Virus record (IMG/VR): IMGVR_UViG_3300032280_000800
Coordinates: 32,001 to 96,000 of that record
DNA length: 64,000 nucleotides
Source: a virus
Taxonomy: Duplodnaviria > Caudoviricetes
Strand: one strand, 5' to 3'
The translations under genes and the position numbers were made by a program. Positions 3,118 through 63,966 of this stretch are shown in pieces. Position 1 is the first letter of the stretch, and every line of letters starts with the position of its first letter. The notes under the pieces were generated by a model. It made no database searches. It saw nothing but the letters and a program-made list of their open reading frames with translations, and was not told the origin of the DNA.

Positions 3118-3140
3118 ATATAGAAAGAACATAGAATAAA

Positions 3141-34056: not shown

Positions 34057-35670
34057 ATGACCAATAATAAAAAACGAATACTATTCTGTACAGAGTCTAC
34101 ACATATTAGATCTGGCTATGGTAACTACACTAGATCTATTCTTGATAGACTATTTGCAACTCAAAAATATGAGATAGCTGAATTATCTTGTTACCGAACC
34201 GTTAATCAGGATAAGGACTGTCCTTGGAAGGTTTATCCAAATGCAGTAGAAAAGGAAGACCAAAGATTTCAGCAGTATAGTTCTAATGCTAATAATGGTT
34301 TTGGTCAATGGAGATTTGATATTGTTGCTGGACATTTCAAACCAGATATAGTTATTGATTTTCGTGACATATTTATGACTGTTTTTGAAAGAACATCTGT
34401 ATTTAGAAATAAATTTCATTGGGTGTTAGCGCCAACTATTGATTCTTTTCCAATAAAACATGAATGGTTAGAGTTATTAAAAAATTGTGATACGTTATTA
34501 ACACATACTAACTGGGCAAAAGAAGTCATAGAGAAATCGCATGGAATAAGTGTGTCTGGTGTTGTTAAAGACTCTATAGATACCAATAACTTTAAACCTA
34601 AAAATAAGATTCAGTGTAGAAATGAACTTGATTTGGATTTGGACGCTTTTATTGTGGGTTCTGTGATGAGAAACCAAAAAAGAAAGCTGATACCAGACCT
34701 ATTTAAGATCATAAGTAATCTAAAATATAAATTTAATCAGAATATCTTTTTGTATATGCACACAAGCTATCCCGAAACTATGGGTTGGGATATTCCCGAT
34801 TTATTATTAGAGCATAAAATATATGATAATGTAATATTCACATATGTTTGTAAAAAATGTAAATACTGGAAGCCAATGAAATGGAAGGGTTCTCAGAGTA
34901 TATGTCCAAAATGTTCTCAGAGACAGATGACATTAGCTAGTGTTACAAATGGAATATCGGATAACGACTTATGTAAAATATACAATACTTTAGATATTTA
35001 TGTGCAATATTCTATCTGTGAAGGATTCGGTATACCTCCACTAGAAGCTGCTTCATGCGGTATTCCTTTTATAACAGTGGATCACGGAGCAATGGCAGAA
35101 CTTGCTGATGATTTATATGGACTCAAGGTTCCATTGGCTGGATTATTTAGGGATCAAGAAATTGGTTCTGACAGAGCCTATCCCTCCAATGAAGATTGTG
35201 TAGAGTTAATTCTAAAAATTAAAGAAATGTCTTTATCAGATAAAGCATCTCTCTCTAGTAAGCAGTTAGAAAAAGTATCAAAAGAATACTCCTGGGATAT
35301 TACTGCTAAGGAGTTTGAAAAAATTATTGATGCTATAAATATATCAGACACAAATAGGTGGTCTCATATACCAAATACGTACTTCACAGATGTGCCCAAA
35401 AACACACAAGAAACTAAAAATAATAGAGAATTTGTATATAGTGTGGTTGATGATATTTTAGAAACCCCAGAACTAAAACATAGTTTTTTCATACAACATC
35501 TTATTATGGCATTAGATAATGGATATGTCATGTCTGATAAAAATATTATCCCATACACACAAAAAGATGCTCTTAAAACACTAGAAATGTGGTTTAATAA
35601 TAAAATTATGCTAAATAGATTTTTAGAAGACAATAGTATTGTAGCACAAAATGATTTTCTTAATTATTAA
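34057..35670 (+). CDS. GT4-family (GT-B) glycosyltransferase with inserted CxxC...CxxC motif
   Basis: SGYG, RNQKRK, SICEGFGIPPLEAASCG, YSWD; insertion CKKC...CPKC. Confidence 0.82.
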   Translation: MTNNKKRILFCTESTHIRSGYGNYTRSILDRLFATQKYEIAELSCYRTVNQDKDCPWKVYPNAVEKEDQRFQQYSSNANNGFGQWRFDIVAGHFKPDIVIDFRDIFMTVFERTSVFRNKFHWVLAPTIDSFPIKHEWLELLKNCDTLLTHTNWAKEVIEKSHGISVSGVVKDSIDTNNFKPKNKIQCRNELDLDLDAFIVGSVMRNQKRKLIPDLFKIISNLKYKFNQNIFLYMHTSYPETMGWDIPDLLLEHKIYDNVIFTYVCKKCKYWKPMKWKGSQSICPKCSQRQMTLASVTNGISDNDLCKIYNTLDIYVQYSICEGFGIPPLEAASCGIPFITVDHGAMAELADDLYGLKVPLAGLFRDQEIGSDRAYPSNEDCVELILKIKEMSLSDKASLSSKQLEKVSKEYSWDITAKEFEKIIDAINISDTNRWSHIPNTYFTDVPKNTQETKNNREFVYSVVDDILETPELKHSFFIQHLIMALDNGYVMSDKNIIPYTQKDALKTLEMWFNNKIMLNRFLEDNSIVAQNDFLNY

Positions 35671-35675
35671 TTAAT

Positions 35676-36785
35676 ATGAAAAATATACTATATATAGGAC
35701 CATATAAAGAAAATACCGGCATGGGAAGGTCTTCCAGAAGGTATATAGATGCACTAGGATATAACTTTGATATTAATCTAAGTATAAGACCCGTATATTT
35801 TACTCCTTACCTAGATACTAACAATGAGTCTGGTAAAGACTATAGTGAGTTTGAAGATAATAGTAGCTCCTACTACGACATGATTATTCAGCATGGGGTG
35901 CCTAATTGTTTTGAATATAGATCCGAATTTGGTGAAAATGTAGTTATTACTGATATTGATACACTTGGTATAGGGCATACTGGATGGATAGATAGAATTA
36001 ATATGATGGATAGAGTAATAGTTCAATCAGAATGGTCTAAAAAATCTTTAATTCAAGCTGGTCTATCAACAAAAGTACAGGTATTGCCAGAACCCTTTGA
36101 TTTAACTAAATTTCATCAATCCTATGACACACTATTTGCTAATCCAAATAATGATTTTGTATTTTATTATATAGGTAAACACCAAGATAAAAATAATATT
36201 AAAGCTTTATTAGCAGCATTTTTTTTAGAATTTAAAAAACATGATGATGTAAAACTAATTATTAAAACAAATATGGATGGTTTTGATCATCAAGAAGTAG
36301 AAAAAATTATAACATACGATATACAACAAGTAGAGCGAACACTAAGAGTTAACAGTAAACATGTTCAAGCTCCGCATGTCGTTATAGGATACTATGAACA
36401 AGAGTACATGATGAGACTACATAATCAGTGTAGCTGTTACGTTAATGTTTGTCGCTGCGAGTCGTTTGGGGCTAGTGCTATAGAATCTATGTTGTTTAAT
36501 AATTTAGCTATAGTAAATTCTGGAATAGGATCTAATACATATATAAATAAATATAATGGATTAGAAATAGACAGTATACTAACAAATGTATATAGTAAAG
36601 ATTTTTATATGGAAAATACATACACTATATATGAACAATGGAGAGAACCATATTTGGACTCAATCAGAGAACAAATGAGAAAAGCTTATGAAACAACAGA
36701 GAGTGAAAAAAAACAAAAGCTTAGTAATTTTGATAAACAACAGTTTTCAGAATCATCTTTTATAGAAAGTCTTTTACATAAATGA
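35676..36785 (+). CDS. GT4-family (GT-B) glycosyltransferase
   Basis: TGMG, FYYIG, LIIKT, CESFGASAIES. Confidence 0.75.
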   Translation: MKNILYIGPYKENTGMGRSSRRYIDALGYNFDINLSIRPVYFTPYLDTNNESGKDYSEFEDNSSSYYDMIIQHGVPNCFEYRSEFGENVVITDIDTLGIGHTGWIDRINMMDRVIVQSEWSKKSLIQAGLSTKVQVLPEPFDLTKFHQSYDTLFANPNNDFVFYYIGKHQDKNNIKALLAAFFLEFKKHDDVKLIIKTNMDGFDHQEVEKIITYDIQQVERTLRVNSKHVQAPHVVIGYYEQEYMMRLHNQCSCYVNVCRCESFGASAIESMLFNNLAIVNSGIGSNTYINKYNGLEIDSILTNVYSKDFYMENTYTIYEQWREPYLDSIREQMRKAYETTESEKKQKLSNFDKQQFSESSFIESLLHK

Positions 36786-48159: not shown

Positions 48160-51100
48160 TTATCTACCTAATCCAATCAATTCGGTAACTCTTAATTGTA
48201 TCTTATCTACTAGTCGTTTTTCGTCTTCTGGACTTAATTTATAGCTACTATCTGCTGGAGATGTTAATTCTACTTCTATCTTACCCCCTTTAAAGGTTAC
48301 TATTTCTGGAATACTTGGTCCTTTAATTTCAATAGATTTAATAGAATCTAAACCTCTAATAAAAGTATCAACATGTTTTCCAAAAGCGCTAACGGGACCA
48401 CCTAATGCAGGGAAAACTCTTGCTAGATTATTTATAAGAGCTCCTAAATTAGCAGTCTCAGCACCAAAAGATTTGATAAAGCTGTCAAATACTGTGTTGG
48501 CACTAGTCATATCAAATCCCATAGCCTTACCAAAAGATTGTGCCACGTTCATAACATTACTTCCTCCGCCAACCTTTCTATATATTGGATTAATAATTCC
48601 TCCAGATTGAGCATATGAAACTCCGCCCATACTGGGGGCGCTGCCAATACTTCCATTATTAATAGCATTTAATAGTGGTAAGTGTTTATTTGTCGCTTGT
48701 TTATTTACAACATATTCTCCACGAGTTAACATTGCTGGAATAGTATCTGTACCCTTGGGTTGATAATTTACTAAAACAGAACCACCAGAGGATAAGTATT
48801 TGGGTTTAATAACATTGTCTAGATGGCTTCTTAATTTTTTCTCTTCTAATATTTCTGGCCTATAAGCAGCTACATCATTCATATTAACTGCAACGTCTCC
48901 AAACCTATGCATACGATTATAATATTTTTGATATCCAAACCATGAAGAATTCTCTTGGGTACTATTGTCTTTAAATGTTGGAATATTCTCAAATAATAAT
49001 TTACCCAGATCAGATAATAATGGAGTGTATTGCTCGGCTTCGGATCGTTGAAGTGTCTCATCATTAAAAATTGCTTGAGCTTTTTGTTGTACTCTTTGAT
49101 GAGCTAATTGAATTTTCTCTTTAACGTCTTGACCTAAAGATGGAGATGCTGCTGGGGCTTTGGGAGGAACTACTCCTGGCTTGTCTCCACCAGCACCAGC
49201 TGCTTCAATATCCTTAGCTTCCACAGACTGCATATCTAGATGTTTTTTCAAGTAAATAAAATTTGGATTACCGAATGGTGATGGCATAGTTGGGAAATTT
49301 GAAATTTCGCCAGTATATTTGCCTCCGAGTCTAGCTACTTGTTGTTTAATCATTTCATATGGCTGTTGATACTCTGTAAATAGTCCAGAATATCCAGCAA
49401 AGAATCTATCAACAGTATCTGCTGGTATTTGTTTGTCAGCAATTTCTACCTGATTTGCTCCCCTGTAAATTTTAGGCATTCCATTATTATCAATGGTTTG
49501 CACAATAGTTTTATTAGCATTTGGATCTGGCTTATTTACTAAGTCGGCAACAGGCTCTGTGCCATAGCTTCTTAATGAATCCCAGAATTCATATGGCTTT
49601 TTAAGAGTTTTTAATCTATCTTGTATACCTTTTGCTGCTTTGTGATAAGACGTATCTGGTGTTGTTGCTTTTAAATCTTTTGAACTTAATGCTTCTAGTC
49701 TTGCTTGTCTTTCGCTTACATTACGATCCTTATTAAAATTAAGAGTGTCTACTAAGAATTCTAAAAATTTAGTTTCTCCAGATAATGGCTTATTGTCCTG
49801 ACCCATGAAAGGCTGCGCTGCTGCGTCACCAATTTCTGTATTTGCTCCGTTTAATAGATTAGCTCCTGCTGCAATTTCTCTCATTAATCCTGGAGTAATA
49901 GATTCTCTATTATTAATGGTAAATGTGTCAAGATTTTTAATTCTATCCAAAGTATTAACATCTGCTAAAACTGTATTTCTAACTTCTTCTGGGGTTCCGG
50001 GTAGTTTATAGTTGTCGTCAATTCTTTTCCATTGTTTAATGTCTTTTGGTGCTATTCCACCAAAAACCTTATCTAAATTAGCTCTCTTCCAAGTTGTATA
50101 TCCTTGTCCAAGTTTTTTACGTAAACTAGTAATTTGTTCTTCTTCTGTTTTCCCTTCTGGTTTATTATCTATAGTTAGTTTCTTAAATCCTGGATTTACT
50201 TTTTTATATATGTTAGGATTACCATCTGCCATTTGTCCAGTATACAAGCCCATAGCAGCAATAGCATTCTGATAATTCTTTATAGTTTTTGGCAAAACAT
50301 ATTGTTCTTTGGATCTATTATCAGTTTGTGACGATGTAACCCCCTTAATCTGTTTAAGGAATGCTTGCTTATAATTTTCTACAAAACTATCATCGTATGC
50401 TTTTTCTGTTGTTTGCAAGTTCCATAAACCAAACTTATCTGCAAAACTATCGGTGGTAGGATTAGCACTTGCTGTACCATACATATTTTGTAGTTTATCC
50501 AAATTCCACGATAAACTACTATTAACAGATGGTAGGGACTGTGCAATAGTTGGATCTATTTTTTGTATCCAAGCTTTAAATTGTTCATTATTTTCTGGTA
50601 TTTTTTCTTTAATACCAAGAGCACTACCATAATTCTTTAGCATTGTACTGATTAATTCATTAGTATCTCTAATGTATGGTCCAGACTCTCCGACAACATT
50701 CATCGATCCGGGTCTGCCATATGCCATATCAAAATTACTAAAAGTTTTGAATGGATTAATATGGGCTCCACCCTTTAATGGAGTATTAAATAATACGTAT
50801 TCCATAGATGGAGAAGATTCAAATTTAACGCCAGCACCAACACGATTTTTGTATAGTTTATCTAATACTTCTTGTTTTTGTCTTTCTAATAGTTTAACAG
50901 AGTCTGAGTCTCTGCCTTCTTTTTTAATTTTCTCTGCTATATCTTTGTCAATTTTCTGCATTTGTACAGTAGCTTGATTTCTTTCTTCTTCGCTAAGAGT
51001 ACCCATTCCAGTCATCATTTGGAGTGGATTGTTTTGTAAATCTTCTCTGTTTTCCCATCTGGCTCTCATAGTCCAATACTTCTCAAGCTCAGCATCATAT

Positions 51101-54100
51101 TTATCTCTTTGCTTATTAAAGAAATCCCATGCTTTGCTAGATTCAATAATGTTATTAGCTTTGGATGTTTTTTCTTCTAATTTACTGACTAATTTTTTAC
51201 GGTTATCTTCAGAATCTCCAGGGTATCCATACTTGGTTAGTAAATCATTAATAACCTTTTGTGCAGCAACTTTATCTTCTTTGGTAACTCCAGTAATACC
51301 AGCAGATCCAGAGCCACTAAAGTTTTGCGACTTAAATTTACTATCAGATAACTTATCTCGTAAATGTTTTTGTAGCATTTTACTTTGTGTTGTAACCTGT
51401 TGTGCGGCTTCTGGACCTCTTGATATTGGACTGTTATCTAGGTCTGGTATGGATCCGCCAGCAAAATCTTTAAGATATCTAGATTTTAATTCATTAAACT
51501 TATTAATAACTAAACTATTCTCATCAGTATCTGTACCAGCAATATCCTGTTGAACAACACCAAATTCTCTTAAGTATTGTTGTAATGCCTGTTCGTTCGT
51601 TTGTTTTTTCTTATCTGACGGTATTGAAGATAGTGGAGTACTAAGAATAGATGCATTTCTCGTATACGCATTAAAATCCATTTTACCATCACTTTTCATA
51701 GCTTTGGCAACAATGGCTGGAAATGGCTTTCCGTTCATATCAAAAATATCTTCTCCGTCAAATTTGTCTTCATTATTTCCTTTAAAGCCAAAATCTTGTG
51801 GTTTTGGTATTATTGGACTGGTAACATTAAATGCTGGGAAAGTATTTCCATCTACATTCGGTATTCCAAGATTATTTTGTGCGATATAATCTCGTTCTAA
51901 TTTTTTACGTAAAGCATTTCTTTCGTCAATATCCTTTTGCATATCTGGGGATATTGTCTTGGCATCTGACACTGTTTTGAGTTTCTCGTCGAGCTCTTTA
52001 AGTCTCTTATTTGCTTCTTCTCTTTCTTGTGCTCTTAACAGTTGCCCACGATCAGAGCCATCACCCAGTTCATATTTTGGTATTTTTGCTCCACGAGCAG
52101 TAAAGTTAACCGCCCCCATAGGATCTTTAAGTCCCATAGCTTGTGCAAGTTGCATCTGACCAAACATATACTGATTGTCTTTGGTAGCAAATTCTTCAGT
52201 TCTATCTCTTTGCGTTGTCTCATAAGCTCTCTTTGCTACTTCCGCATTAATTTTCATCTCTTCAATTGGGTCTGCCGACCATGTTGGTTTTGGTAATGGT
52301 CCTCCAGTAACCGGACCAGATGATCCAGAAGCTCCAGCATCTGGTGGCATTGGTCTTTCTCCAAAAACAGCATTATATGCAGCAGAACCGATACCAGATA
52401 CAATAGGCAGTGCTTGAAAAGCAAGACTAGTATAGCTTAATTTTCTCAATACATCCCACGCTTTTGCTGATGTGGTATCTCCCTTTATTTTTAATTTTTC
52501 CCAAGCCCATTTACCAACAACATCTTTATAAGACGGACCCTTGGGGGCCTTCTTTTGTTTTATTAGGAGTTTCCCCTTCCTCTTCGGATCAGGTAAAACA
52601 TTAAGACCCTGCTTTTTCAGAAGATCTAGTGCTTCGTCTTGACTAGTAGCCTCTATTGTGTCTCTTACTTCTCTTCCAGTTCGTGTGTCTAGGGCTTCAT
52701 ATATAAAAGTGGATTTTGGAGGCGTTTTTCCTGCTGCTGGAGCAGGTTTTGGTTTCGTTGAACCCGAAGGTTTTTTGGGTTTTGTTGTGTCAGAAGACTT
52801 GGGCTTGTATATGCTAGGTTTACCCTTCTCTACACTACGGCGACTAGCCAAAACATCCAAACCTTGCTTTTTAAGAAGTGCTATCGCTTCCTCTTGACTA
52901 ACCGCTTCTATCGAATCTCTTACATCCATTCCAAAAGTTTTAGAACCAGCTCGTGTATCTCTAGCTTCATATTTGAAAGTAGATTTTGGTTTTATTGGGA
53001 CTATTGGTGAATCCGCCCTTGGTTCTGCTGGAGTAGCTTCTGGTTTTGGTGCGACTGGTTTGGGAGGAGCTGCTGTTGGCTTTGTGTCTGACGCTTGTTG
53101 AGCAACCGCAGCTTCATTTGGAGTTTCTGGAGGTTTAGTTTTGGTTCCGGTTTTAGCTGCTTTTGCTTTAGCTGCTTTTCTAGCAGCATTAGCTGCTTCA
53201 CCTACTCTAGCCTGTTCAAGTAATCTTGCACGTTCTGCCATCATTTCTGGCGTTGGATTAACAACAGCCTCACCAACCACCCTCTTGGATTTTTGAACAG
53301 TTTGTTCTGTACCGTCTTTAAATAATGCTAAACTTCTATTAGTAATTTCATTAGCATTAGCGATAGGAATACTATTGGGAGAAAGTTTAATAGCATTAGA
53401 TGTAATAGCGCCATTCTGTAACATTTTTGAGCTTACTGAGGTCGCTTTACCAAAAGCTGATGTCATACCCTTTCTGATCATATCATCAGCAGCAGCACCT
53501 CCCATTAACTCAGCACCAAAGCCTATCCACTGTCCTCCTGAATATGATTCTGGACTAGCCTTCATCTTGTCCATAACTCTCTTCTTCATAGATGCTGGAA
53601 TATATTTATTCCAGATATATGAATTTATATCTTGTCCTATTTGATCTCCAAGCATACCTCCAGTAAAGCCTAAAGATAATGCTCCAGCGGTTCCTGTAAC
53701 GATTGCTCCTGGGCCAGTAATCAAGCCGCCCAGAGTTCCGATGGATCCACCGGCAATTGCACCTAAACCACCACCAACAGCACCCAATACCCCAGGAATT
53801 GCTTTACTAGCCAAGCCATACATTAGACTTTCGAAATCAGCTGGCTCAAGGCCTAGTTTAGTATTTCTAAAAGCATTATCAACCTTCATAAATTCTGGAG
53901 TAAATGGAAAATTTCTATCTCCACCGAAGTAATTTTCTTCTAACGGATTACGTCCACCAGTGATTCGTTTATCATACTGTATAGCGTGAGCAGCTTCGTA
54001 GGTTTTGTACCAATCCAAACTCGGACCAGGTTTAAGTTGTTTGTCTCTAAATGCTATTGCTTTATTTAAACTTTGATTGATTTGTTGAGTTTTGTTTTTA

Positions 54101-57100
54101 TCTCCTCCAAAACCTAAAAATCCAGCAGCTTGTTTCTTTTCTTTTTGTAAATTGTCTATCAAAAGATCATTATCTGATAATATCTTATATTTTTGTTGTG
54201 CGGACGTTGAGAGGTATTTCTCATGATGCCCTGATACTGCCGAATTATAACTCTTTAATTCTGACTTATTCAGTATGTTGTCTTTTGAGTTTGATCTAAA
54301 ATCTACATACTTTAATAGATCGCTCTGTGGAAAATTATTTAAAGGAATATGATCGGATGTTCCAGCTAATTTTTCCCACTCTGTATCTGGCACTATGGGG
54401 AATCTACTGCGAACACTACGGTCTAATAAACCTCCCTTAGATAAATATTTAACGCTGCCACCATTACTATACTTACCACTATTTATACTTTGTAATAATG
54501 GTAAATTCCTAGCTGTAGCAGCTCTATTAACAACGAATTCTCCCGGTGTTAACATTGCTGGAACAGTATCTGTTCCTTTGGGAGCAAAATCAACCATAGA
54601 GCCCATAGCGTAATAACTTATTAAACCACCTTTAGCTTTAGGAACAGCTCCGTCCACTCCTCCCAACCCTAATCTATTAGCAACACCATTTAATTGATCA
54701 ACAATATCAGTAATAGCTGTTCTCATCTTATTTGTAAAATCATCAGCGGATAACGACAGAGCCTGTGCTAATAATTGTCCGCTATCAGATATTAATCCTG
54801 ATTGAGCCATAACAGCTTCTGTTTGAATTTTGGCAGCTTGGTTGAATGCATCTATGTATGGTTTAATTTGTGGATTTTCTTGTGGTCTACCAAAATCAGG
54901 ACCGAATACTTCTTTAAACTGATCAAATACAGCGGGGTCTCCGCCAGCATTACCCAGTATGCGTGTAATATTATCAAATAATTCTTTTTGTAAGCGGGCA
55001 AATTCTTCTGGTGTTCTAGTAGATTCCAAAGATTGTAATGTTGATATTGCTCCCGGAATATCTTGTCTGCCACCAGCACCACCAACAACTCTATTGTAAG
55101 ACTCAGTATCTTTAGCAAAATTAAACATAGCTTCAGGATTATCTAACATACCAAAGAAATCCATAACACTACGACGACGACCAGCAGAAATTTGTGATTG
55201 TTCATCAATCTTCTTAAGAGCGGCAGAAGCCCTATCTGTATTATTCGCTAGTGTATCTAGTGCTTTAGTATATTTATTAATTTTTGATGTTAGTTTTGCA
55301 ATTTCGCCTGAGCCTAACGCGCTAGTTGCTGTTCCAGGATCGCTTTCTAGTATTCTCTTTCTGGCAACAGCATCCGCTATTTCTTTACCAATAGCAGTTG
55401 GATCTGTTATACCTCCAGTTAATCCTCTAACAGCAGAGTCTGATGGGTCAGTAAGCTCTCTTAATGAGATTGTTTGATTAAACTTTTCTTTAAGCTGTAT
55501 GGCGCTTTGTAAATTGATGTCTTGTACTCTCACAGTATTATCTGCTAATTTATCAAAATTACCAGCTAGCTGATCAGACACTGCACCAAGCTTACGATTA
55601 ACATCTATTTGTTTCTTAGCATAATCTTCAAATGTTGCTCTAGCTTTTTCGGCAGCATCACTCAATTCTTTGAACGCTTGAACATCATTTGCAAGTTCTT
55701 CCATGGTCATGCCTTGTCTATTCATACTAGTACTAGCCCTTATCCACTTCATGACCTCGTCTTCTAGTTCTTTACGAATATCTGGAGACATATCAAGTCC
55801 ACCAAACATGTTTGTTAGTCTTGAACGAACATTAGCTTCTGAACCAGCCGAAATATCAGCATTTGCCGTATCTCTTAATATTAAAGGCAATTCTTGTTGA
55901 ATAGCCTGAAAGCCTTTAATAAAATCCCCCATTTGTTTGGTTTGCTTATTATCTCCTAAACTCTTACCCACACTATCTACAGCAGATGCTAGCTCCTCTC
56001 TGCTATATGCTGTGATATTTTCTAGAATCCTAGCGTTTTGTGAATCTCCTTCATAGGCTTTGGCACCTCCGCCAGATAATTCACCAGCAACACTCATAGC
56101 TCTATCAGCACTTGCTCCTATTTCAGATACAATACGAGTCATGCTTGTTGATAGTCTATTCATAATATCAACAATATCTAATGTGAATTTTTTAACTGAT
56201 CTATTAACAATCTCAAGTCTAGCTGCTAGTATTCTAGATCTATTTTCTCCACCTAGTTCTTTTTCTACAATAGCATCGATGTTGTCTGCTGCTGTTTTAT
56301 TTTGGACTTTACCTTCTGGTGAGTAAGCTTGTTGATATTCTTTAACTGCTGTGGCTTCGTCCATACCTTGTCTTTGTCTGGCTTCATAATATATTCTTTT
56401 TCTAAGCTGGTCCTGTGCTTTAGCAACAGCCTCATCTGCTTTTTTACGTTTCTCAGAACCCGGCGCTAATGTGTCTAAAAATTCTTGTACGGTCTGAGAA
56501 TTATCTACCTTCATTCCTTGAGCTTCTAAATTACTCCGCATCTGTTGTTCTTGTAAAATATTTAAAGAATTAAGTCTACCAGCACTGTCTTTTGATCTAC
56601 CATATGCTGCTCTTCTTTGGTCTGCTGTTAGAGCAGCCTTCTCTATTGGTTGGCTTTGAGTAAGAACTCTTTCTGCAAAGGCTTGATTGCTAGTAGCGAA
56701 CGCTTCGGTATTGTCTGCAATCTTTCTAAGTTGAATCAAACTCTCCATTTCTTTTTTAGCTTGTTCTATATCTTTACTATTATCAAAATAACCTTTGAAA
56801 CCTTCAAATACTCCAACTAATTGAGATATAACAAATGCTATTTCTAATAGACCAGCGGCGCCACCACCCTTATATCCTCTAACAGCACCACCAGAAGCTA
56901 AGTGCTGAACACCTCCTGATGAAACTTTTGGTGATCTACCTGATGTTGAAATTTTGCTAGAAAACGCCCCAACAGAACCACCACGAGCAACTCTTTGTTG
57001 TTCTTGTATAGCATTTGGTTTCATTACTTGAGAATTAAACATATCTTGTACAGACGATGATTTTATAACATAACTGAACGGCTTTACAGAAGTAGATACA

Positions 57101-60100
57101 GTATCAACATTGCTTGGTGCTCCCGGAACAATGTATGCTGACCCCAATTTCTGAGCAACTGTATTATTAACAGCACTTGCTCCACCACGATTAAGAGCGT
57201 CCAATTCTTGTATACTAGCTGGTAACGGTGGAGGTATAACCATCTCACCTTTTGCTAATTTAACAGGAACTAATCCTCCAGCAGACAACCCTACTCTACC
57301 GCCAGCAGCTTTTCTACTACGCCTTCTGCCTCCTCCACCGCTGGGCATACCTCCTCCTATACGACTACCAATTTGAGCAGCTACCATCATACCCATAATG
57401 CTTGTCATAGTTGATAGCATACCTTCAAGGCCACTAGCAAAAGCATTCCATACTTTATTATCCTTAATGGTTGTAGCTGATTTTTCTAAAGAAACATTTA
57501 ATGCTTGATAGTTTCTATTCATTCTATCTAATAGTTCTTCTCTTTCTCCAAAAGTTTTAGCAGTAGCAAGCTCTCCTAGTGTTTTGTTGAGTTCGTTTGA
57601 AGCTCCAGCCACACCTCTCATAGCAAGTTCGGTTTCTTTGGCTGTTGATTCTTTTATGAAACCAGCAACAGCACCGCTGGCTATACCAGCAGCACCACCT
57701 ATAGCAGCACCCTTACCCTTAAAAGCCTGAGCGCCGATTAATGCTCCACTCATACCGTATGAGCCAGCGCTTTGTAATGCTCCAGTAAAACCAGCTAGTG
57801 CTGGACTAGTATCAGAAACAGTACCAGCAAATTGATCTAAGCTATTTAATATGGACGGCATTTGTGCGCTTAGTTGTGTTGCTCCTAAGCCTATAATACC
57901 AGTAATACCACCTATTTTATCTCCCATCTTGGTAACTCTGTCAGCAACTTTGGGAAAAGATCTCTCTATTAATCCCATTCCTGGAAGATTAGCTGTACTG
58001 TTAGCTCGTGCAACCCTGTCTAATCTTTGTCCTGTTGTCGATTCTAAATTTCTTTGAGCCTGCCTTAAGTTTCCTTGTTCAAAGGCTCCAAACTTACCTT
58101 CCTTAAGAGACTGTTGTGCCCTAACATCAATACCCCTCACCTTCATTTTGCCGGTTAAGAACCCTAGTTCTTTTTCAAATTCTGAATGAGCGTGTTCTAA
58201 TTCTGATAAGATTGTAATATCTTTATCTATAACGTTTGCTAATCCCTTAGAATCAAGGCTAGTTTTAATATCAGCAATAGAAGAGCCTCCTACTTTCTGC
58301 ATACTTGCTATGATATCGTCTATAGATTTAGCTAAATCTGTTTCACCTATTTTAGGATCAATTTTCTTAAATAACTCAGTAAGTCCTTCTCTGGTAGTTT
58401 TTTCAACATCTACATCTCCAATCTGACCCATATTTTTAGTAATTAGGTCTTGTATATCTGTTTGCGCAGTTGTCTTCTCCTCTGTCGCTTTTTCTGCCCT
58501 ATTGTAAATTTGCTGTCTTATATTACGTTCATATTGTTGAAGGCTAATGCCGAGTTTATCAACAATTCTTTGTAAATAATCCATTCTATCAGCATCAACA
58601 GAGCCACCTCCTGCAAATTTACGGAGACCAACTCCACCACCACGATTAAGCCCTAAAGCTTTGGTCGCCTTTGCTCTCAAAACAAAACTACCAACTGGTA
58701 GATTAGTTCTGATGCTGTCGCTAGTACCACTACCCGGCCCTTTAAATACTCCAACGCCACCACCTACCGCAAAACTTCCCATACCATTTTTATCAGCTTG
58801 GTTCATGCGGCCTAGCCTGCCATATCCTATACTTTTGGCAGTTGCCGGAGGAATGTAAGCCTCTCCATTACTAACTAGCGCAGGAACAGTTCCTCCCCCA
58901 GCAAATTGCGTAATGAATCCGCCATTAGCTTTTTGTTCAGCATCTTTGTTTCTATTGGCTCCTAAAAATTTAAATACATCATCAAAAGATCCACTATATA
59001 CAATCTTAGCGCCACCTTCTGGATCATGCTCAAAAACATCATACCAAGTCCTTTTAGAATTAAAGGAATCCATGATGCTTTTACCTTCTCTCCACGAATA
59101 TTTCTTACTCGGAGTTCCTCCGTCTGCAAACTTTTGTAGTATTCCTCCATGAGATTTTTTAGTAGGTAACTTCTGCCCCATGGCTTTAAGAATATTATCT
59201 AATTCGGATACGGCAATATCTCCACTACCATACTGATCTAATAAAGCATATAGGGTCTCTGATAATGCGGTTACTCTACCTTGATTTGGTACTGACGTTC
59301 CCTTGGCTAGCTCCTGATAATCTGGCCAAGCCTTTTGTGCTTTAGATAGTTTGCGTTGAATAGAAGTTTTTTCGTCAGGGTCTTTTGTTGACTTTAATTC
59401 ATCTTCTAATTCGCTAATATAGCTTGGAAAAGATGATCTAATATGACTATCAATTGATGGATCAAAAGATAACTGTCCAGTTTTCTTAAACGAGCCTATA
59501 GCTTCTTCTGCTTGTGTATAAGCAGTATTACGACTTTCTGCCATTAGCGCTGCTGATGCTCTAGCTTCTTTAGCTGCTAGTGCTGGATTTTTTGTTTGTA
59601 CTGACTTACCAAATGGTAATACTTCTTCTATCTCTGTATACCATCCGTCATATTGCTTAATTAAATCTGGCTTAAGGGCTTCTAAAGCTTCTGGTTCTAT
59701 ATCATCTGGTAACTTAACTAATTTTTTGCCAATAGCAATACCAGCGCCACCAGATTCAAAAGTCCACTTGTTAAGCTTATCATAATAATCAGCTAATACT
59801 TTGGGAAGCTTAATGCCGTAATGATCTGACCACTCAACACTATCATCGGTATCCGCATCCCTATAGGCTTGCGCAGCAAATGCGGCGTGATCTGATGGTG
59901 ATAGTGGAACAAATCCACGAGCACCATAGGCCCCTCTTCTTTTGTTCTTGGTAGATCTATCTGGCTTAACGCCTCCCATAGACCCATCATCAAAAGCTTG
60001 AACTTGCCCACCCTCAAACCATTTACTAGGATTCTCATCATAATATCTACCAAACTCTTTACGAGCTCTATCAAAAGCATAGCCAGTAAGAGTTCTCTTT

Positions 60101-63100
60101 ACTTCTGTTGGAATATTACTTGGTATACCAAAATATTTAGCAGCTGGGCCGAGACCATTTTCAAAGTCTACAGCTCTATTTTGTTCTAGTTGAGCAATTG
60201 GTGGTAGGCTGGCACCAAGCTCTGCTAATGCTGCCTCTACGACAGCGCCCTCAATATTTCCTTGACCCATTAACTCTTGATATTCTGGAGCTAGTCCTGG
60301 CTCTTTATAGAGATAAGCTTTTTTTCCAGATTTTTCAGCAGCACCAACATTATCTGCGTTATCATCAATTAATTTTTCTGCTTTACTTAAATTAGCTGCT
60401 TTGGCACTAGCAATATCTGTTCCAAGACCCTGACTGACTCCGGTAATATCTTCTTTACGGTAAGGTAAACCAAAACTCTGAAGAGTCTGTGCCAAAAGAT
60501 CCTCAGTATTTTGTGGTCTAGCAGTAAGGACTCTGGTTTGTTTAATAAAGTCTGGATTGGCATCTATTAGAGATTTTAACTTGGCTCCTAGTTTTGTTAA
60601 TCTACCCTTCTTTAGAGCTTCTTCTACGACGGTTCTATCAGAATATTTGGGAATGTCAGGCTTGCCTTTTTCATTAAGAATATCTGCTCCAGCAACTAAA
60701 GTTTCATCAAAATCGAAAGCTAATGGCTCGCCAGTGAATATATCGGCATATTGTAGATTTTCTGCAAACTGACTCTTAGCGGATGCTGTTTGTTGTTGCA
60801 TTTTAGTAACAGCATCGAAATATTGGGACTTGAAGCCTCTAGCATAAGCATAAACAGTGCGATTATTACCAATATCCCAATTATCAAAATCTTTAGAATA
60901 ATCTAATTTACCCTGACTATCTACTAAACCAACAACACCAACCTTTTTCATTTTTTCAACTTTGGCAGCATACTCTGCGTCTTGTACTCCCTTAGACGAT
61001 AGAGCATTATTGATTACGTCTGAAGCACCAAGTAAATCTATCTGCCCCTTAGAAATCATGTCTTTCCTAAGCCTTCTGCGTAGATTAGTAGGGATAGCCG
61101 TTAGTTCTGCTACACCAGCTTCGTTACCTAGTCCGGCTAATTGCTTAACTAAAACATCTCTAACAGCTTCTTCTATACTTAATCCTGCGTCACTCTTAAG
61201 GCTCTTTTTAGCTAAAATACCAACTTGTCCATAAGGTCTTAATAAGCTTTCATCAACATCAACTTCACCAGCATCAGCAAATTTTTGTATGAATCCTCCA
61301 TTGGATTTTTTATTTGCCAGCACTTCTCTCATTCCTGTAGTAATATTATGACGTCCGCTATTTCCTTCTTTCTTATATGCGGCGGGCTGATTGAATCCTG
61401 CTAATAATTTTTTAGCTTTGTCGTCTTTGTCAGTTACAACCTGTTCAATAGATTGTGTTAATACTCCTGGTAAAATTTTTGATACCTCAGGATCAGTATC
61501 ATAAAAATCGTTGCCTAAAGCTTTTATATTAGCAGCTAACTGTTTTTTTAAGGGCGTGTAATTATCATTCAGTATTTCTTGTTCTTCTGAATCTCCTCTA
61601 CCTGTGAATCTAAATCTCTTATTGCTACCAGTTCTTAAAGATTTGAAAACATCTCTACTCTTAACATAAGAAGCTAATTTACTATTAAAAGACCCTTCAT
61701 TATTTATGATATATTTACCATCTACTTGCTTGGCCCAGTCAGCATTCCAAGTTTCTGGTAAGTCAAGCCCCATATTACTATAAAGCCTAGTAATATTCCC
61801 ATAACCATTTTCTTGAGCATATTTTTTTAAATTTTTTGGAATATCAGTTTGAGTTTTAGCTAGCTCTATATGAGTAAAATCAGTATCTCCACCAGAAGGA
61901 AGTTGTTTATTAACTGTTTTAGATTTTTTAACTCCCTTATCACCAGATGACCCCTTACCAAATCTTTGTACAACTCCCCCACTATTCATAGCATCTAGTG
62001 TGTCTGTGCCATATTTATTAACAGCATCACGACTCATAACATATTCTCTTGGCTCTAATAGAGCAGATACTTTGTCTCCTCTACCAGTACCAGGAACACT
62101 ACCACCTCTTTTAAATCCTAATATCTTGCCTCCATTACTAGCTGTTGTTGGACTAGTTGGGCTAGATCCTCCTGTTGTAAGAGACAGAGTATCTATAGCT
62201 TGAGTTAGATTATTTAAGCCAATAATCATATTTGCTAATGTAATATTAACAATCGATAATTGTGATGTATTTGCTGCTGTAGCAATAGTATTGGCTTTTA
62301 CAGATTTGGAACTTGCTGGAGTACCCTTACCACCTTTGCCTCCAGAACCTCCTGAGCCGCCACCACCTGGACCGCCACCACCTGGACCGCCACCAGAACC
62401 ACCTCCTCCAGTTGGAGGTCCACCAGAACCACCACTTGGTGCTCCACCTCTGCCAATACCTCCTACAAACCCAGAAGCAAATTCACTAAGAATAGAAGCT
62501 CCCTTAATAGCGGCCAAGGCTGTCAACATTGGCAATAGTGGCTTGAGTGCTGATGCCATAGAAATAAAAGCATTGGCTGTGGTTAAGCTAATGGTTGCAA
62601 TTGTTCTAAATGTACTACTATTACCAATATCTCTAATTAAAGCAACAAATGCTTGTCGTGTTTTTTCAAACTGAACAGCTAATGATTGTTGAGCTTGTAC
62701 AGCGTTTTTGCTTAATGATGCCTGACCATTTTGAGCAACTGATAAGGCATCTTGAGCAGTGGCGAATTGTTGAATAAGTGGGATAACTTTACCTATTTGT
62801 CTAAATCCACCAAGCTCTTCTACTATTTTAGAAAATCTTATATCTCTAGGATCAAGACCGGATAACCCTTCACTTAATCTTCTTACGGCCTCATATGGCC
62901 CAACGAACTTCCCTTCTAGATCGGTTAATACTATGCCGTACTCCTTTAAAGCTTCTATTGTTGAGCCTCTCTGAATTCTAGTAAAAATAGTCCTTAAGCC
63001 CGTAGCAATAGTTTCTGCACTTTCACGAGTTGTTGCTCTAACACTAGTAAATAAAGCAACGAATTCATTTAAAGCGTCTGTGCCTTTGCTAACTCCATTG

Positions 63101-63966
63101 CTAGCAGCAGCAAAAACACCACCGGTCCTTTGAATAGCTGTGATAATATCTCCGGCCTCAACAGCAAATGCAGCAGCTACAGCATTGATACTACCCAAAG
63201 CACCCTCTAGCTCACCAGTACTAATATTAAACTGACGCATTAAAGCAATACTGCCTTCGACCGTACTATTTAAATCATCAAAGGATGGAGCTAATGCCGA
63301 CTTGGCTAGGGCTTCTAATGCTGTTTTGGTGTCTTGGGCAGATAATCCTGCCTGTGCTAGTGTCACTGACACTTGTAGTAAATCGGACGAAGTCACACCC
63401 AAATTGGTAGATAGTCTTGTAATTTCTTTGGTAATATCAGATAGTCCCGAAACACTTGTTCCAGTAACTTGTGATAATCTAACTATCTCTTTATCAAAAT
63501 TAACGAATTCTTTAAAAGCACTATTAACTGCATTGGTTAAGCCATAAATAACACCAGTAACCGTACTAAAAGCAGCAAACCTTCTAATAGCTAATCCAGA
63601 CTGCTTACCAAACTCTTGCATTTGTGTACCAGCAACAGAAACAGCTTTACCAGCATTGCTAGCGGCTTTACCTGTTGCTGCCAATGTTGTTGGTCCAGAA
63701 GAACCTAGTCCTCCTAAGCTAGTTGCTAATTGTTGTATGCTAGCACTTAATTGATTAATATTACTATTAGCTTTAATCGCATTAGTAGAAATATTTTGTA
63801 ATCCCTTATTAACTGTAGCTATACTTTTAGAAGCCGATCCTTTGAGGTCTAAATCAACCTTAACTTTAATATTAGATAATTGTTTTCTAATAGAAGAAGC
63901 AATAGCTCTTGTATTTGTAGGACCTCGTAGATTAATCTGTGCAGTTAAATTAAATGCTGCTGCCAT
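48160..63966 (-). CDS. Giant tape-measure protein (TP901-like N-terminal domain) with multiple accessory domains
   Basis: 5268 aa; N-terminal FDKEIVRLSQVTG...LAQAG...AVEAGDI..AIQRTG...TRESAETIATGLRTIFTRI; repeated GTD.VPAMLT.GE.VV modules; glycine-zipper hydrophobic segments. Confidence 0.85.
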   Translation of the reverse strand: MAAAFNLTAQINLRGPTNTRAIASSIRKQLSNIKVKVDLDLKGSASKSIATVNKGLQNISTNAIKANSNINQLSASIQQLATSLGGLGSSGPTTLAATGKAASNAGKAVSVAGTQMQEFGKQSGLAIRRFAAFSTVTGVIYGLTNAVNSAFKEFVNFDKEIVRLSQVTGTSVSGLSDITKEITRLSTNLGVTSSDLLQVSVTLAQAGLSAQDTKTALEALAKSALAPSFDDLNSTVEGSIALMRQFNISTGELEGALGSINAVAAAFAVEAGDIITAIQRTGGVFAAASNGVSKGTDALNEFVALFTSVRATTRESAETIATGLRTIFTRIQRGSTIEALKEYGIVLTDLEGKFVGPYEAVRRLSEGLSGLDPRDIRFSKIVEELGGFRQIGKVIPLIQQFATAQDALSVAQNGQASLSKNAVQAQQSLAVQFEKTRQAFVALIRDIGNSSTFRTIATISLTTANAFISMASALKPLLPMLTALAAIKGASILSEFASGFVGGIGRGGAPSGGSGGPPTGGGGSGGGPGGGGPGGGGSGGSGGKGGKGTPASSKSVKANTIATAANTSQLSIVNITLANMIIGLNNLTQAIDTLSLTTGGSSPTSPTTASNGGKILGFKRGGSVPGTGRGDKVSALLEPREYVMSRDAVNKYGTDTLDAMNSGGVVQRFGKGSSGDKGVKKSKTVNKQLPSGGDTDFTHIELAKTQTDIPKNLKKYAQENGYGNITRLYSNMGLDLPETWNADWAKQVDGKYIINNEGSFNSKLASYVKSRDVFKSLRTGSNKRFRFTGRGDSEEQEILNDNYTPLKKQLAANIKALGNDFYDTDPEVSKILPGVLTQSIEQVVTDKDDKAKKLLAGFNQPAAYKKEGNSGRHNITTGMREVLANKKSNGGFIQKFADAGEVDVDESLLRPYGQVGILAKKSLKSDAGLSIEEAVRDVLVKQLAGLGNEAGVAELTAIPTNLRRRLRKDMISKGQIDLLGASDVINNALSSKGVQDAEYAAKVEKMKKVGVVGLVDSQGKLDYSKDFDNWDIGNNRTVYAYARGFKSQYFDAVTKMQQQTASAKSQFAENLQYADIFTGEPLAFDFDETLVAGADILNEKGKPDIPKYSDRTVVEEALKKGRLTKLGAKLKSLIDANPDFIKQTRVLTARPQNTEDLLAQTLQSFGLPYRKEDITGVSQGLGTDIASAKAANLSKAEKLIDDNADNVGAAEKSGKKAYLYKEPGLAPEYQELMGQGNIEGAVVEAALAELGASLPPIAQLEQNRAVDFENGLGPAAKYFGIPSNIPTEVKRTLTGYAFDRARKEFGRYYDENPSKWFEGGQVQAFDDGSMGGVKPDRSTKNKRRGAYGARGFVPLSPSDHAAFAAQAYRDADTDDSVEWSDHYGIKLPKVLADYYDKLNKWTFESGGAGIAIGKKLVKLPDDIEPEALEALKPDLIKQYDGWYTEIEEVLPFGKSVQTKNPALAAKEARASAALMAESRNTAYTQAEEAIGSFKKTGQLSFDPSIDSHIRSSFPSYISELEDELKSTKDPDEKTSIQRKLSKAQKAWPDYQELAKGTSVPNQGRVTALSETLYALLDQYGSGDIAVSELDNILKAMGQKLPTKKSHGGILQKFADGGTPSKKYSWREGKSIMDSFNSKRTWYDVFEHDPEGGAKIVYSGSFDDVFKFLGANRNKDAEQKANGGFITQFAGGGTVPALVSNGEAYIPPATAKSIGYGRLGRMNQADKNGMGSFAVGGGVGVFKGPGSGTSDSIRTNLPVGSFVLRAKATKALGLNRGGGVGLRKFAGGGSVDADRMDYLQRIVDKLGISLQQYERNIRQQIYNRAEKATEEKTTAQTDIQDLITKNMGQIGDVDVEKTTREGLTELFKKIDPKIGETDLAKSIDDIIASMQKVGGSSIADIKTSLDSKGLANVIDKDITILSELEHAHSEFEKELGFLTGKMKVRGIDVRAQQSLKEGKFGAFEQGNLRQAQRNLESTTGQRLDRVARANSTANLPGMGLIERSFPKVADRVTKMGDKIGGITGIIGLGATQLSAQMPSILNSLDQFAGTVSDTSPALAGFTGALQSAGSYGMSGALIGAQAFKGKGAAIGGAAGIASGAVAGFIKESTAKETELAMRGVAGASNELNKTLGELATAKTFGEREELLDRMNRNYQALNVSLEKSATTIKDNKVWNAFASGLEGMLSTMTSIMGMMVAAQIGSRIGGGMPSGGGGRRRSRKAAGGRVGLSAGGLVPVKLAKGEMVIPPPLPASIQELDALNRGGASAVNNTVAQKLGSAYIVPGAPSNVDTVSTSVKPFSYVIKSSSVQDMFNSQVMKPNAIQEQQRVARGGSVGAFSSKISTSGRSPKVSSGGVQHLASGGAVRGYKGGGAAGLLEIAFVISQLVGVFEGFKGYFDNSKDIEQAKKEMESLIQLRKIADNTEAFATSNQAFAERVLTQSQPIEKAALTADQRRAAYGRSKDSAGRLNSLNILQEQQMRSNLEAQGMKVDNSQTVQEFLDTLAPGSEKRKKADEAVAKAQDQLRKRIYYEARQRQGMDEATAVKEYQQAYSPEGKVQNKTAADNIDAIVEKELGGENRSRILAARLEIVNRSVKKFTLDIVDIMNRLSTSMTRIVSEIGASADRAMSVAGELSGGGAKAYEGDSQNARILENITAYSREELASAVDSVGKSLGDNKQTKQMGDFIKGFQAIQQELPLILRDTANADISAGSEANVRSRLTNMFGGLDMSPDIRKELEDEVMKWIRASTSMNRQGMTMEELANDVQAFKELSDAAEKARATFEDYAKKQIDVNRKLGAVSDQLAGNFDKLADNTVRVQDINLQSAIQLKEKFNQTISLRELTDPSDSAVRGLTGGITDPTAIGKEIADAVARKRILESDPGTATSALGSGEIAKLTSKINKYTKALDTLANNTDRASAALKKIDEQSQISAGRRRSVMDFFGMLDNPEAMFNFAKDTESYNRVVGGAGGRQDIPGAISTLQSLESTRTPEEFARLQKELFDNITRILGNAGGDPAVFDQFKEVFGPDFGRPQENPQIKPYIDAFNQAAKIQTEAVMAQSGLISDSGQLLAQALSLSADDFTNKMRTAITDIVDQLNGVANRLGLGGVDGAVPKAKGGLISYYAMGSMVDFAPKGTDTVPAMLTPGEFVVNRAATARNLPLLQSINSGKYSNGGSVKYLSKGGLLDRSVRSRFPIVPDTEWEKLAGTSDHIPLNNFPQSDLLKYVDFRSNSKDNILNKSELKSYNSAVSGHHEKYLSTSAQQKYKILSDNDLLIDNLQKEKKQAAGFLGFGGDKNKTQQINQSLNKAIAFRDKQLKPGPSLDWYKTYEAAHAIQYDKRITGGRNPLEENYFGGDRNFPFTPEFMKVDNAFRNTKLGLEPADFESLMYGLASKAIPGVLGAVGGGLGAIAGGSIGTLGGLITGPGAIVTGTAGALSLGFTGGMLGDQIGQDINSYIWNKYIPASMKKRVMDKMKASPESYSGGQWIGFGAELMGGAAADDMIRKGMTSAFGKATSVSSKMLQNGAITSNAIKLSPNSIPIANANEITNRSLALFKDGTEQTVQKSKRVVGEAVVNPTPEMMAERARLLEQARVGEAANAARKAAKAKAAKTGTKTKPPETPNEAAVAQQASDTKPTAAPPKPVAPKPEATPAEPRADSPIVPIKPKSTFKYEARDTRAGSKTFGMDVRDSIEAVSQEEAIALLKKQGLDVLASRRSVEKGKPSIYKPKSSDTTKPKKPSGSTKPKPAPAAGKTPPKSTFIYEALDTRTGREVRDTIEATSQDEALDLLKKQGLNVLPDPKRKGKLLIKQKKAPKGPSYKDVVGKWAWEKLKIKGDTTSAKAWDVLRKLSYTSLAFQALPIVSGIGSAAYNAVFGERPMPPDAGASGSSGPVTGGPLPKPTWSADPIEEMKINAEVAKRAYETTQRDRTEEFATKDNQYMFGQMQLAQAMGLKDPMGAVNFTARGAKIPKYELGDGSDRGQLLRAQEREEANKRLKELDEKLKTVSDAKTISPDMQKDIDERNALRKKLERDYIAQNNLGIPNVDGNTFPAFNVTSPIIPKPQDFGFKGNNEDKFDGEDIFDMNGKPFPAIVAKAMKSDGKMDFNAYTRNASILSTPLSSIPSDKKKQTNEQALQQYLREFGVVQQDIAGTDTDENSLVINKFNELKSRYLKDFAGGSIPDLDNSPISRGPEAAQQVTTQSKMLQKHLRDKLSDSKFKSQNFSGSGSAGITGVTKEDKVAAQKVINDLLTKYGYPGDSEDNRKKLVSKLEEKTSKANNIIESSKAWDFFNKQRDKYDAELEKYWTMRARWENREDLQNNPLQMMTGMGTLSEEERNQATVQMQKIDKDIAEKIKKEGRDSDSVKLLERQKQEVLDKLYKNRVGAGVKFESSPSMEYVLFNTPLKGGAHINPFKTFSNFDMAYGRPGSMNVVGESGPYIRDTNELISTMLKNYGSALGIKEKIPENNEQFKAWIQKIDPTIAQSLPSVNSSLSWNLDKLQNMYGTASANPTTDSFADKFGLWNLQTTEKAYDDSFVENYKQAFLKQIKGVTSSQTDNRSKEQYVLPKTIKNYQNAIAAMGLYTGQMADGNPNIYKKVNPGFKKLTIDNKPEGKTEEEQITSLRKKLGQGYTTWKRANLDKVFGGIAPKDIKQWKRIDDNYKLPGTPEEVRNTVLADVNTLDRIKNLDTFTINNRESITPGLMREIAAGANLLNGANTEIGDAAAQPFMGQDNKPLSGETKFLEFLVDTLNFNKDRNVSERQARLEALSSKDLKATTPDTSYHKAAKGIQDRLKTLKKPYEFWDSLRSYGTEPVADLVNKPDPNANKTIVQTIDNNGMPKIYRGANQVEIADKQIPADTVDRFFAGYSGLFTEYQQPYEMIKQQVARLGGKYTGEISNFPTMPSPFGNPNFIYLKKHLDMQSVEAKDIEAAGAGGDKPGVVPPKAPAASPSLGQDVKEKIQLAHQRVQQKAQAIFNDETLQRSEAEQYTPLLSDLGKLLFENIPTFKDNSTQENSSWFGYQKYYNRMHRFGDVAVNMNDVAAYRPEILEEKKLRSHLDNVIKPKYLSSGGSVLVNYQPKGTDTIPAMLTRGEYVVNKQATNKHLPLLNAINNGSIGSAPSMGGVSYAQSGGIINPIYRKVGGGSNVMNVAQSFGKAMGFDMTSANTVFDSFIKSFGAETANLGALINNLARVFPALGGPVSAFGKHVDTFIRGLDSIKSIEIKGPSIPEIVTFKGGKIEVELTSPADSSYKLSPEDEKRLVDKIQLRVTELIGLGR
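52590..52985 (-). repeat. Duplicated ~40-aa PilC/GspF N-terminal-like domain inside the tape-measure gene
   Basis: STFKYEARDTRAG...VRDSIEAVSQEEAIALLKKQGLDVL and STFIYEALDTRTGREVRDTIEATSQDEALDLLKKQGLNVL; similarity also visible at DNA level. Confidence 0.8.
62335..62465 (-). repeat. Gly/Pro/Ser-rich low-complexity linker in the tape measure
   Basis: GGGSGGPPTGGGGSGGGPGGGGPGGGGSGGSGG directly after the TP901-like domain. Confidence 0.85.

Follow-up and report, generated by a model that had tools for sequence, protein, structure and literature searches.

The tape measure protein of a phage is generally regarded as a ruler, into which a cell-wall hydrolase is sometimes built, and a tape measure gene that seems to encode a phosphatase therefore raises the question of what such an enzyme may be doing in a phage tail. 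We analysed 64,000 nucleotides of DNA from a virus of the Caudoviricetes (positions 32,001 to 96,000 of the IMG/VR record IMGVR_UViG_3300032280_000800), a stretch that is hereafter called the window; the whole record is 111,749 bp long. On the minus strand of the window, a single reading frame of 5,268 codons at 48160-63966 encodes a giant tape measure protein, P0001. We found that residues 1080-1222 of this protein form what is almost certainly a genuine and intact phosphatase domain of the haloacid dehalogenase (HAD) superfamily inside the tape measure. In the reading that we propose, for which the case seems to us evenly balanced, this domain would be a catalytically competent, Mg-dependent HAD phosphomonoesterase of the clade containing the deoxynucleoside-5'-monophosphatase Dmp of phage T5 and the 3'-phosphatase of Pnkp of phage T4 (the Dmp/Pnkp clade), carried as cargo on the tape measure and released at infection.

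The HAD domain and its host protein

The initial annotation had described an intact HAD phosphatase domain with four motifs in a characteristic order and spacing. All four motifs were found so arranged in the translation, as LAFDFDETL (residues 1082-1090), VLTARP (1146-1151), SAKAA, which contains K1189, and LIDDNADN (1199-1206), and a direct check of the DNA confirmed that the reverse complement of 60700-60714 encodes DFDET. The features of the protein and of the domain are given below in window positions, with the evidence for each; counts refer to 129 copies of the domain.

48160-63966, minus strand: giant tape measure protein P0001, 5,268 residues (open reading frame list and translation)
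62845-63429, minus strand: PhageMin_Tail / TP901-type tape measure domain, residues 180-374 (PF10145, E 3.7e-25)
60301-60729, minus strand: core of the HAD-superfamily phosphatase domain, residues 1080-1222 (AlphaFold2 model, Foldseek and VIA-align matches, hhalign match to T5 Dmp)
60700-60714, minus strand: motif I, D1085-F-D1087-E-T1089 (D, D and T each in 129/129; end of model strand 33-35)
60592-60696, minus strand: flap or mini-cap insert, residues 1091-1125, GADI...G.PDI..Y.D (conservation and alignment to Dmp)
60514-60525, minus strand: motif II, T1148-A-R1150-P (T or S in 110 and 19 copies; A and R in 129/129; model strand 95-102)
60400-60402, minus strand: motif III, Lys1189 (129/129; helix 136-143, before strand 149-152)
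60361-60366, minus strand: motif IV, D1201-D1202 (127/129 and 128/129; end of strand 149-152)

The copies were extracted from all retrieved proteins, 127 in number, and their pairwise identity averaged 43% and fell as low as 22%. Just nine of the core columns showed no more than one exception, namely D1085, D1087, T1089, L1090, A1149, R1150, G1176, K1189 and D1202, and two others, position 1148 (T in 110 copies, S in 19) and D1201 (127 copies), were near-constant. The canonical catalytic positions of HAD enzymes (D1085, D1087, T1089, K1189 and D1202, as well as T/S1148 and D1201) are all among these invariant or nearly invariant columns. That the catalytic positions have been kept while the rest of the domain drifted argues against chance and against a dead domain, and the pattern of conservation argues for selection on catalysis; judged from the sequences, the domain is probably an active phosphatase.

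The same pattern bears on the idea that the domain has lost its enzymatic function and is retained for shape or length, acting as a spacer or in assembly without catalysis. As half of the close relatives do without it, the domain is dispensable, and the length modules of tape measures can be structurally tolerant, both of which would suit a spacer. However, pseudoenzymes usually lose their catalytic residues, whereas here the catalytic positions were kept in 127-129 of the 129 copies while the remainder diverged to 22-43% identity, and we consider this explanation most improbable.

The domain had also been described as cap-less, which proved approximately right only. The rest of the HAD pattern held, but between motif I and strand 2 there is a conserved insert of ~35-50 residues (residues ~1091-1140) consisting of a flap and short helices, in which G1093, A1094, D1095, I1096 and D1110 are conserved in at least 75% of the copies.

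When 1.84 billion cluster representatives were searched exhaustively, the domain was found in 82 clusters (50% identity), 75 of them at E ≤ 1e-10. Nearly all of the matched proteins were 1,900-7,900 residues long and carried the segment ~900-3,500 residues from the N-terminus. Chance co-occurrence of the motifs was rejected on the grounds that the domain recurs in 82 clusters with invariant motifs, and an assembly or fusion artefact on the grounds that it occurs in giant proteins from many independent contigs. No stand-alone form of the domain was detected in the exhaustive search, its few short matches being fragments from short contigs; word-index searches for short or mid-length homologues returned 2 + 2 matches, all of them fragments or parts of giant proteins; and tblastn against 50,697 cultured-phage records revealed no cultured-phage copy of the segment.

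The host protein is a tape measure, as had been supposed, since the same protein has a bona fide TP901-type N-terminus: residues 180-374 of P0001 match PF10145 (PhageMin_Tail) with 89.4 bits against a cut-off of 33.2. In addition, its first 1,000 residues match the PHROG tape measure families 28, 4211, 1533 and 1272 at E values of 1e-13 to 2e-19. Relatives with the same N-terminal region (residues 100-520) numbered 830, with lengths of 2,900-9,200 residues, and the name "TP901 family tape measure protein" is given to them by several sources. The major hydrophobic blocks of P0001 lie from residue ~2086 on, and weaker hydrophobic stretches occur within the first 600 residues. A Pfam scan found no lytic-enzyme families anywhere in P0001.

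Predicted fold and family of the domain

With a 47-sequence alignment, AlphaFold2 produced a model of the segment with a mean predicted local distance difference test score (pLDDT) of 87.7, reaching 94-98 in the core, and with the alternating strand-helix order of a Rossmannoid fold. The motif columns of this 47-row alignment (A4) stayed invariant, indicating that its long rows were correctly aligned; a model made from the single sequence was poor (pLDDT 41). The geometry of the active site was judged from the topology of the model and the register of the alignment. In model numbering, strand 33-35 leads into motif I, strand 95-102 contains motif II, helix 136-143 holds the Lys and strand 149-152 ends in the Asp pair. 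Both hallmarks of the HAD superfamily, motifs I-IV and a Rossmannoid three-layer fold, were thus found in the domain.

A Foldseek search of solved structures gave 17 PDB chains at E ≤ 1e-3, and all of those listed were HAD-fold proteins, including AphA, phosphoserine phosphatase, the HAD domain of Lem4 and the HAD domain of drimenol synthase. The HAD fold expected from the initial annotation was therefore recovered, with every strong match a HAD enzyme and with the catalytic Asp residues conserved. Among viral models, the named top matches were 5'-nucleotidases, PNKP phosphatase domains and acid phosphatases. The 1,000 chains ranked highest by Foldseek were re-aligned with VIA-align, which gave 98 chains at Z ≥ 8; among the 50 entries listed, 49 were of HAD fold, the sole other being the PEX4-PEX22 complex 6xod (Z 8.3). 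The best solved match was the 3'-phosphatase of T4 Pnkp (5uj0_B), with a Z score of 11.0 and a root-mean-square deviation (rmsd) of 3.2 Å over 125 of 142 residues, followed by Pnkp1 of an RNA-repair complex (Z 10.1) and by AphA (Z ~10 over 156-161 residues, rmsd ~6 Å). The alignment with T4 Pnkp starts in register, model residue 29 being placed on chain residue 158, so that D36 and D38 (D1085 and D1087 of the protein) fall on D165 and D167, which we take to be catalytic in T4 Pnkp.

Profile comparisons were made with an 81-sequence alignment of the domain. The Dmp profile comprised six sequences, T5 Dmp and five homologues at 40-61% identity (T5, KPN4, M4H10_20, D25, PG07 and Cody), and the Pnkp profile was of similar size, with six sequences from the family of the T4 Pnkp phosphatase domain. 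With hhalign, the domain matched the Dmp profile at a probability of 94.1% (E 1.3e-7) over 134 columns, including motifs I-IV and the insert after motif I, whereas the match to the Pnkp phosphatase profile reached 32.9% (E 4.6e-4) in an alignment that took in motifs I, II and IV. The Dmp and Pnkp profiles matched each other at 81.5%. Against the single T5 Dmp or the single T4 Pnkp sequence the matches were weak, and with the latter only motif I was aligned. These figures suggest that the three families are kin and that the tape measure domain, which would belong to the Dmp/Pnkp clade, is closest to T5 Dmp. In the ESM Atlas, every neighbour of the segment in language-model feature space was a viral HAD cluster, and PF26880, Phage_T5_dNMPase, is assigned to 9 of the 30. 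The initial assignment to a polynucleotide-kinase-phosphatase or nucleotidase-type group is in keeping with both lines of comparison, the best structural match being to T4 Pnkp and the best profile match to T5 Dmp.

Like T5 Dmp, the domain has the motifs D-x-D-G/E-T, T-A-R, K and I-D-D of a HAD enzyme in the same order and a conserved insert after motif I (G-x-x-D-L/I-x-K/x-Y), which aligns with SF.RV.PC.D..GNLDL.KY of Dmp. Dmp is required, or at any rate there, when infection begins, and the same would hold for the tape measure domain. Unlike the domain at residues 1080-1222 of a tape measure of 5,268 residues, Dmp is a free protein of 244 residues made from first-step-transfer DNA, and the pairwise similarity between the two is too low for phmmer or tblastn.

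The structural matches give some credit to a different substrate. The domain could be a polynucleotide 3'-phosphatase that, in the manner of Pnkp, heals or processes the termini of DNA or RNA, possibly together with a conserved E...D...(E/D)xK element that lies downstream, and it would then serve to repair breaks inflicted by the host or to process ends left by the phage's own nuclease. T4 Pnkp (5uj0, 1ltq) and Pnkp1 are the best solved matches, many of the top viral matches are PNKP phosphatase domains, the Asp pair of motif I is in register with that of the C-terminal 3'-phosphatase of T4 Pnkp, and the [ST]-x-R form of motif II is common to both (SGR in T4 Pnkp). Nevertheless, the profile match to the Pnkp family was 33% against 94% for Dmp. 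Moreover, T4 Pnkp is fused to a P-loop 5'-kinase, but no P-loop adjoins the HAD domain in P0001, where no Walker A motif was found within 900 residues of the domain and the only Walker-like motif is at residue 2662. T4 Pnkp is also, as far as we know, not a virion protein. We consider this explanation unlikely.

Alternatively, the domain might work outside the cytoplasm, dephosphorylating an envelope or periplasmic substrate such as a lipid carrier, a phosphorylated glycan or nucleotides, and so aiding penetration as the tape measure crosses the wall. Tape measure enzyme domains known so far act on the envelope. The secreted class B (AphA) and class C (e(P4)) acid phosphatases share with the domain the HAD fold and the motif pattern, including T-x-R, at Z scores of 8-10; AphA and class C enzymes matched its longest stretch, N-terminal helix included (Z 9-10 over 147-161 residues), and PF03767 is found in 64% of the members of the top Atlas cluster. 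However, the hidden Markov model of PF03767 (Acid_phosphat_B, class B acid phosphatase) had no match at E ≤ 10 in the whole genome, nor any in the segment, the rmsd to AphA was high (5.8-6.0 Å), and these acid phosphatases are secreted bacterial enzymes rather than phage structural fusions. The kinship in sequence is with a cytoplasmic phage nucleotidase, and the cargo of relatives (ADP-ribosyltransferase, a nucleotidyltransferase-associated region and an SNase-like module) points to intracellular targets. An extracytoplasmic role therefore seems to us distinctly improbable.

Distribution of the module and its surroundings

The presence and absence of the domain among homologues, a survey suggested in the initial annotation, was scored with a hidden Markov model of the HAD domain in the best 120 of the 830 N-terminal relatives, which are 65-100% identical to P0001 in residues 100-520. 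The domain was present in 58 and absent from 62 of these closest giant tape measure relatives; it started anywhere from residue ~870 to 3,470, and two proteins, P0003 and P0096, carried two copies each. The median length was 5,090 residues for proteins with the domain versus 3,630 for those without it. The HAD domain is an accessory, mobile module, located in the N-terminal third of P0001 between the TP901-type domain and the major hydrophobic blocks. Three conserved pieces lie around it:

60820-60954, minus strand: moderately conserved piece upstream of the HAD domain, residues 1005-1049, KKVGVVGL...YARGF (G1013 in 112/129, flanking residues partly conserved)
60739-60819, minus strand: long helix before the HAD core, residues 1050-1076 (model helix 2-27, pLDDT 73-91; included in the AphA alignments)
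60067-60267, minus strand: conserved element after the HAD core, residues 1234-1300 (E1244 in 115/129, D1267 in 125, E/D1288 in 125, K1290 in 126)

The last of these, an element of ~65 residues with the signature E1244...D1267...[E/D]1288-x-K1290, always directly follows the HAD core. In sequence, the signature resembles that of PD-(D/E)xK nucleases, which would make the element a putative nuclease. A search of the ESM Atlas with residues 1234-1300 gave no usable match, and no family match was found in Pfam either. A related downstream element was detected in 19 of the 62 relatives lacking the HAD domain, where it is preceded by a different and shorter segment and where several copies have Thr in place of the Lys. 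The presence of the element in such relatives suggests that the HAD domain may be an insertion into a pre-existing, older tape measure domain.

A block with a Walker A motif and a HIGH motif (G.F.P...GH) was found in 17 of the 58 relatives with the HAD domain and in 9 of the 62 without it (for example, P0107, P0177 and P0013). Where the two co-occur, the block lies ~400-560 residues upstream of the HAD domain, and weak Pfam matches to HIGH_NTase1_ass were obtained there; no such block was found in P0001. These observations also touch on the Pnkp-like explanation. The downstream signature is kept in 125-126 of the 129 copies, and the position of the HAD domain behind the Walker A and HIGH block in other giant proteins would accord with end processing, but the downstream element matched neither a family nor an Atlas entry, and the related copies without a HAD domain have Thr for Lys.

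Other modules of the relatives include ADP-ribosyltransferase and SNase-like domains. For example, P0087, which is ~92% identical to P0001 over the full length and ~200 residues longer, carries one additional insert of ~170-190 residues at about residue 700 and has a precomputed match to the ADP-ribosyltransferase family PF03496. The comparison of the two proteins suggests that a cargo module was gained or lost very recently.

Such modules are one argument for a role in counter-defence, in which the phosphatase would destroy phosphorylated immune signals or their precursors, such as linearised cyclic oligonucleotides or phosphorylated nucleotide alarmones, at entry. Delivery before gene expression would suit this role; conflict-type modules (ADP-ribosyltransferase) occupy the same region of the protein in relatives, and it is by one such insert that the 92%-identical tape measure differs. 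In addition, phage polyvalent proteins have been suggested to include injected enzymes that degrade signals (PMC7824862). However, HAD phosphomonoesterases alone do not open cyclic phosphodiesters, and the domain showed no specific resemblance to any anti-signalling enzyme already known, PADLOC-type and anti-defence libraries not having been searched. In our judgement, this role is very unlikely.

Several further features of the tape measure protein were observed. At ~52590-52990 on the minus strand, two tandem domains of ~45 residues resemble the N-terminus of the PilC/GspF platform protein; they read TFKYEARD...LKKQGLDVL and TFIYEALD...LKKQGLNVL and are flanked by Pro/Lys-rich linkers. A short motif, GG..(Q)xFAxGG, and a longer module, D.VPA.L..GE(Y/F)V, recur at several places in the reading frame (48160-63966, minus strand), and the longer module three times matched the C-terminal portion of PHROG tape measure family 25241. 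These recurring motifs may mark module boundaries. PF28597 appears in the precomputed Pfam lists of P0001, P0002, P0087 and P0178 and is absent from those of most HAD-bearing relatives.

Proposed action at entry and other genes of the window

For the reading that we prefer, a Dmp-like phosphatase carried by the tape measure, a course of events can be proposed. In general HAD chemistry, D1085 would attack the phosphate to give an aspartyl-phosphate, and D1087 would act as the general acid/base, protonating the leaving group and then activating water; phosphatases typically have an Asp at this +2 position. The phosphate would be held by T1148 and K1189, and Mg2+ by D1201 and D1202. The tape measure, which would fill the tail tube, would be expelled ahead of the DNA, and the phosphatase would consequently be in the host before any phage gene is expressed. 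By analogy, we regard delivery of the domain into the host as somewhat the better-favoured possibility. Once inside, the enzyme would most likely act on (deoxy)nucleoside monophosphates, removing their phosphate as Dmp does in T5 and thereby altering the host's pool of nucleotides, the simplest reading being that a Dmp-like activity is delivered as protein. A mononucleotide substrate stands, in our estimate, slightly short of an even chance, with the sequence evidence leaning to a Dmp-like phosphatase over Pnkp-type end healing.

Two known systems bear on this proposal. T5 expresses Dmp from the first 8% of the genome that enters the cell, and the enzyme converts the deoxynucleoside monophosphates released from host DNA to nucleosides; it works during the pre-early phase, and without it infection is delayed and virulence is halved (bioRxiv 10.64898/2026.04.02.716235). 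In the Thermus phage P23-45, gp96 is a tape measure of 5,002 residues fused to a virion RNA polymerase that has been proposed to act at entry, and polymerase activity of the recombinant protein was seen in vitro (PMC10770324). The likeness to P0001 lies in a giant tape measure with a non-lytic enzyme in its N-terminal part that is proposed to act as the DNA enters; the difference is that the enzyme is a two-barrel RNA polymerase in gp96 and a HAD phosphatase here. The protein gp96 therefore offers a precedent for a non-lytic enzyme that is fused to a tape measure, is active and is proposed to work at entry.

Several points weigh against the proposal. The domain is known from its sequence and predicted structure, and a folded domain of ~35 Å might not be able to travel in or through the tail tube. 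Nor does the shared fold determine the substrate: in the structural comparisons a polynucleotide 3'-phosphatase was the best solved match, closely followed in score by periplasmic acid phosphatases. The family searches with the segment were blank: a single-sequence Pfam scan, using a copy of Pfam without PF26880, found no HAD family at E ≤ 10; an NCBIfam scan at E ≤ 10 found no HAD family and gave one irrelevant match (E 0.15); and searches of PDB sequences produced chance-level matches only with the single segment sequence and nothing with a 15-sequence profile. These blank scans reflect divergence rather than a missing fold, but as no curated model matched, the kinship with Dmp rests on a small purpose-built profile and a 94% hhalign probability. 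Finally, among the flanking open reading frames on the same strand, no recognisable family was found except for one Ig-like, Hoc-type match, and none had a tail annotation, so that the tape measure assignment rests on P0001 itself.

The HAD fold and its chemistry, as well as enzyme cargo on tape measures, are already known, and what we did not find described is a phosphatase of the Dmp/Pnkp clade as such cargo. A literature search gave no description of a HAD domain or phosphatase in a tape measure, and the paper on polyvalent proteins (PMC5512222) contains none. A widespread and swappable phosphatase module of this clade would extend the picture formed by rulers, hydrolases and the one known RNA polymerase fusion, that of P23-45. 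In relatives the module is found together with ADP-ribosyltransferase-, nuclease- and nucleotidyltransferase-like modules, which would indicate that the tails of certain siphophages are stocked with a mixture of enzymes directed at the nucleotides or nucleic acids of the host from the first moment. More broadly, and in a generalisation that we hold to be doubtful, the giant tape measures of this phage group might be modular delivery vehicles for ready-made host-takeover enzymes. The Dmp-like phosphatase of P0001 and the second conserved domain that would enclose it, whose signature is nuclease-like, would then together form a virion-borne counterpart of the pre-early A1/Dmp programme of T5, which degrades host DNA and dephosphorylates nucleotides, and would operate without phage gene expression or two-step DNA transfer. 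A phosphatase module carried by the tape measure would also be an independent answer, the second one, to the difficulty for which T5 uses its two-step injection of DNA. Because the domain is compact, clearly delimited and should be simple to express, the idea lends itself to direct testing.

Elsewhere in the window, two open reading frames on the plus strand, at 29153-31045 and 31902-33509, correspond to the two halves of the DNA polymerase family phrog_405 (positions 43-617 and 619-1068, respectively), indicating that the polymerase gene is split, with another open reading frame in between. Also on the plus strand, at 34057-36785 in the region of replication genes, we observed two adjoining glycosyltransferase genes (phrog_2170, E 1e-36 and 7e-20).

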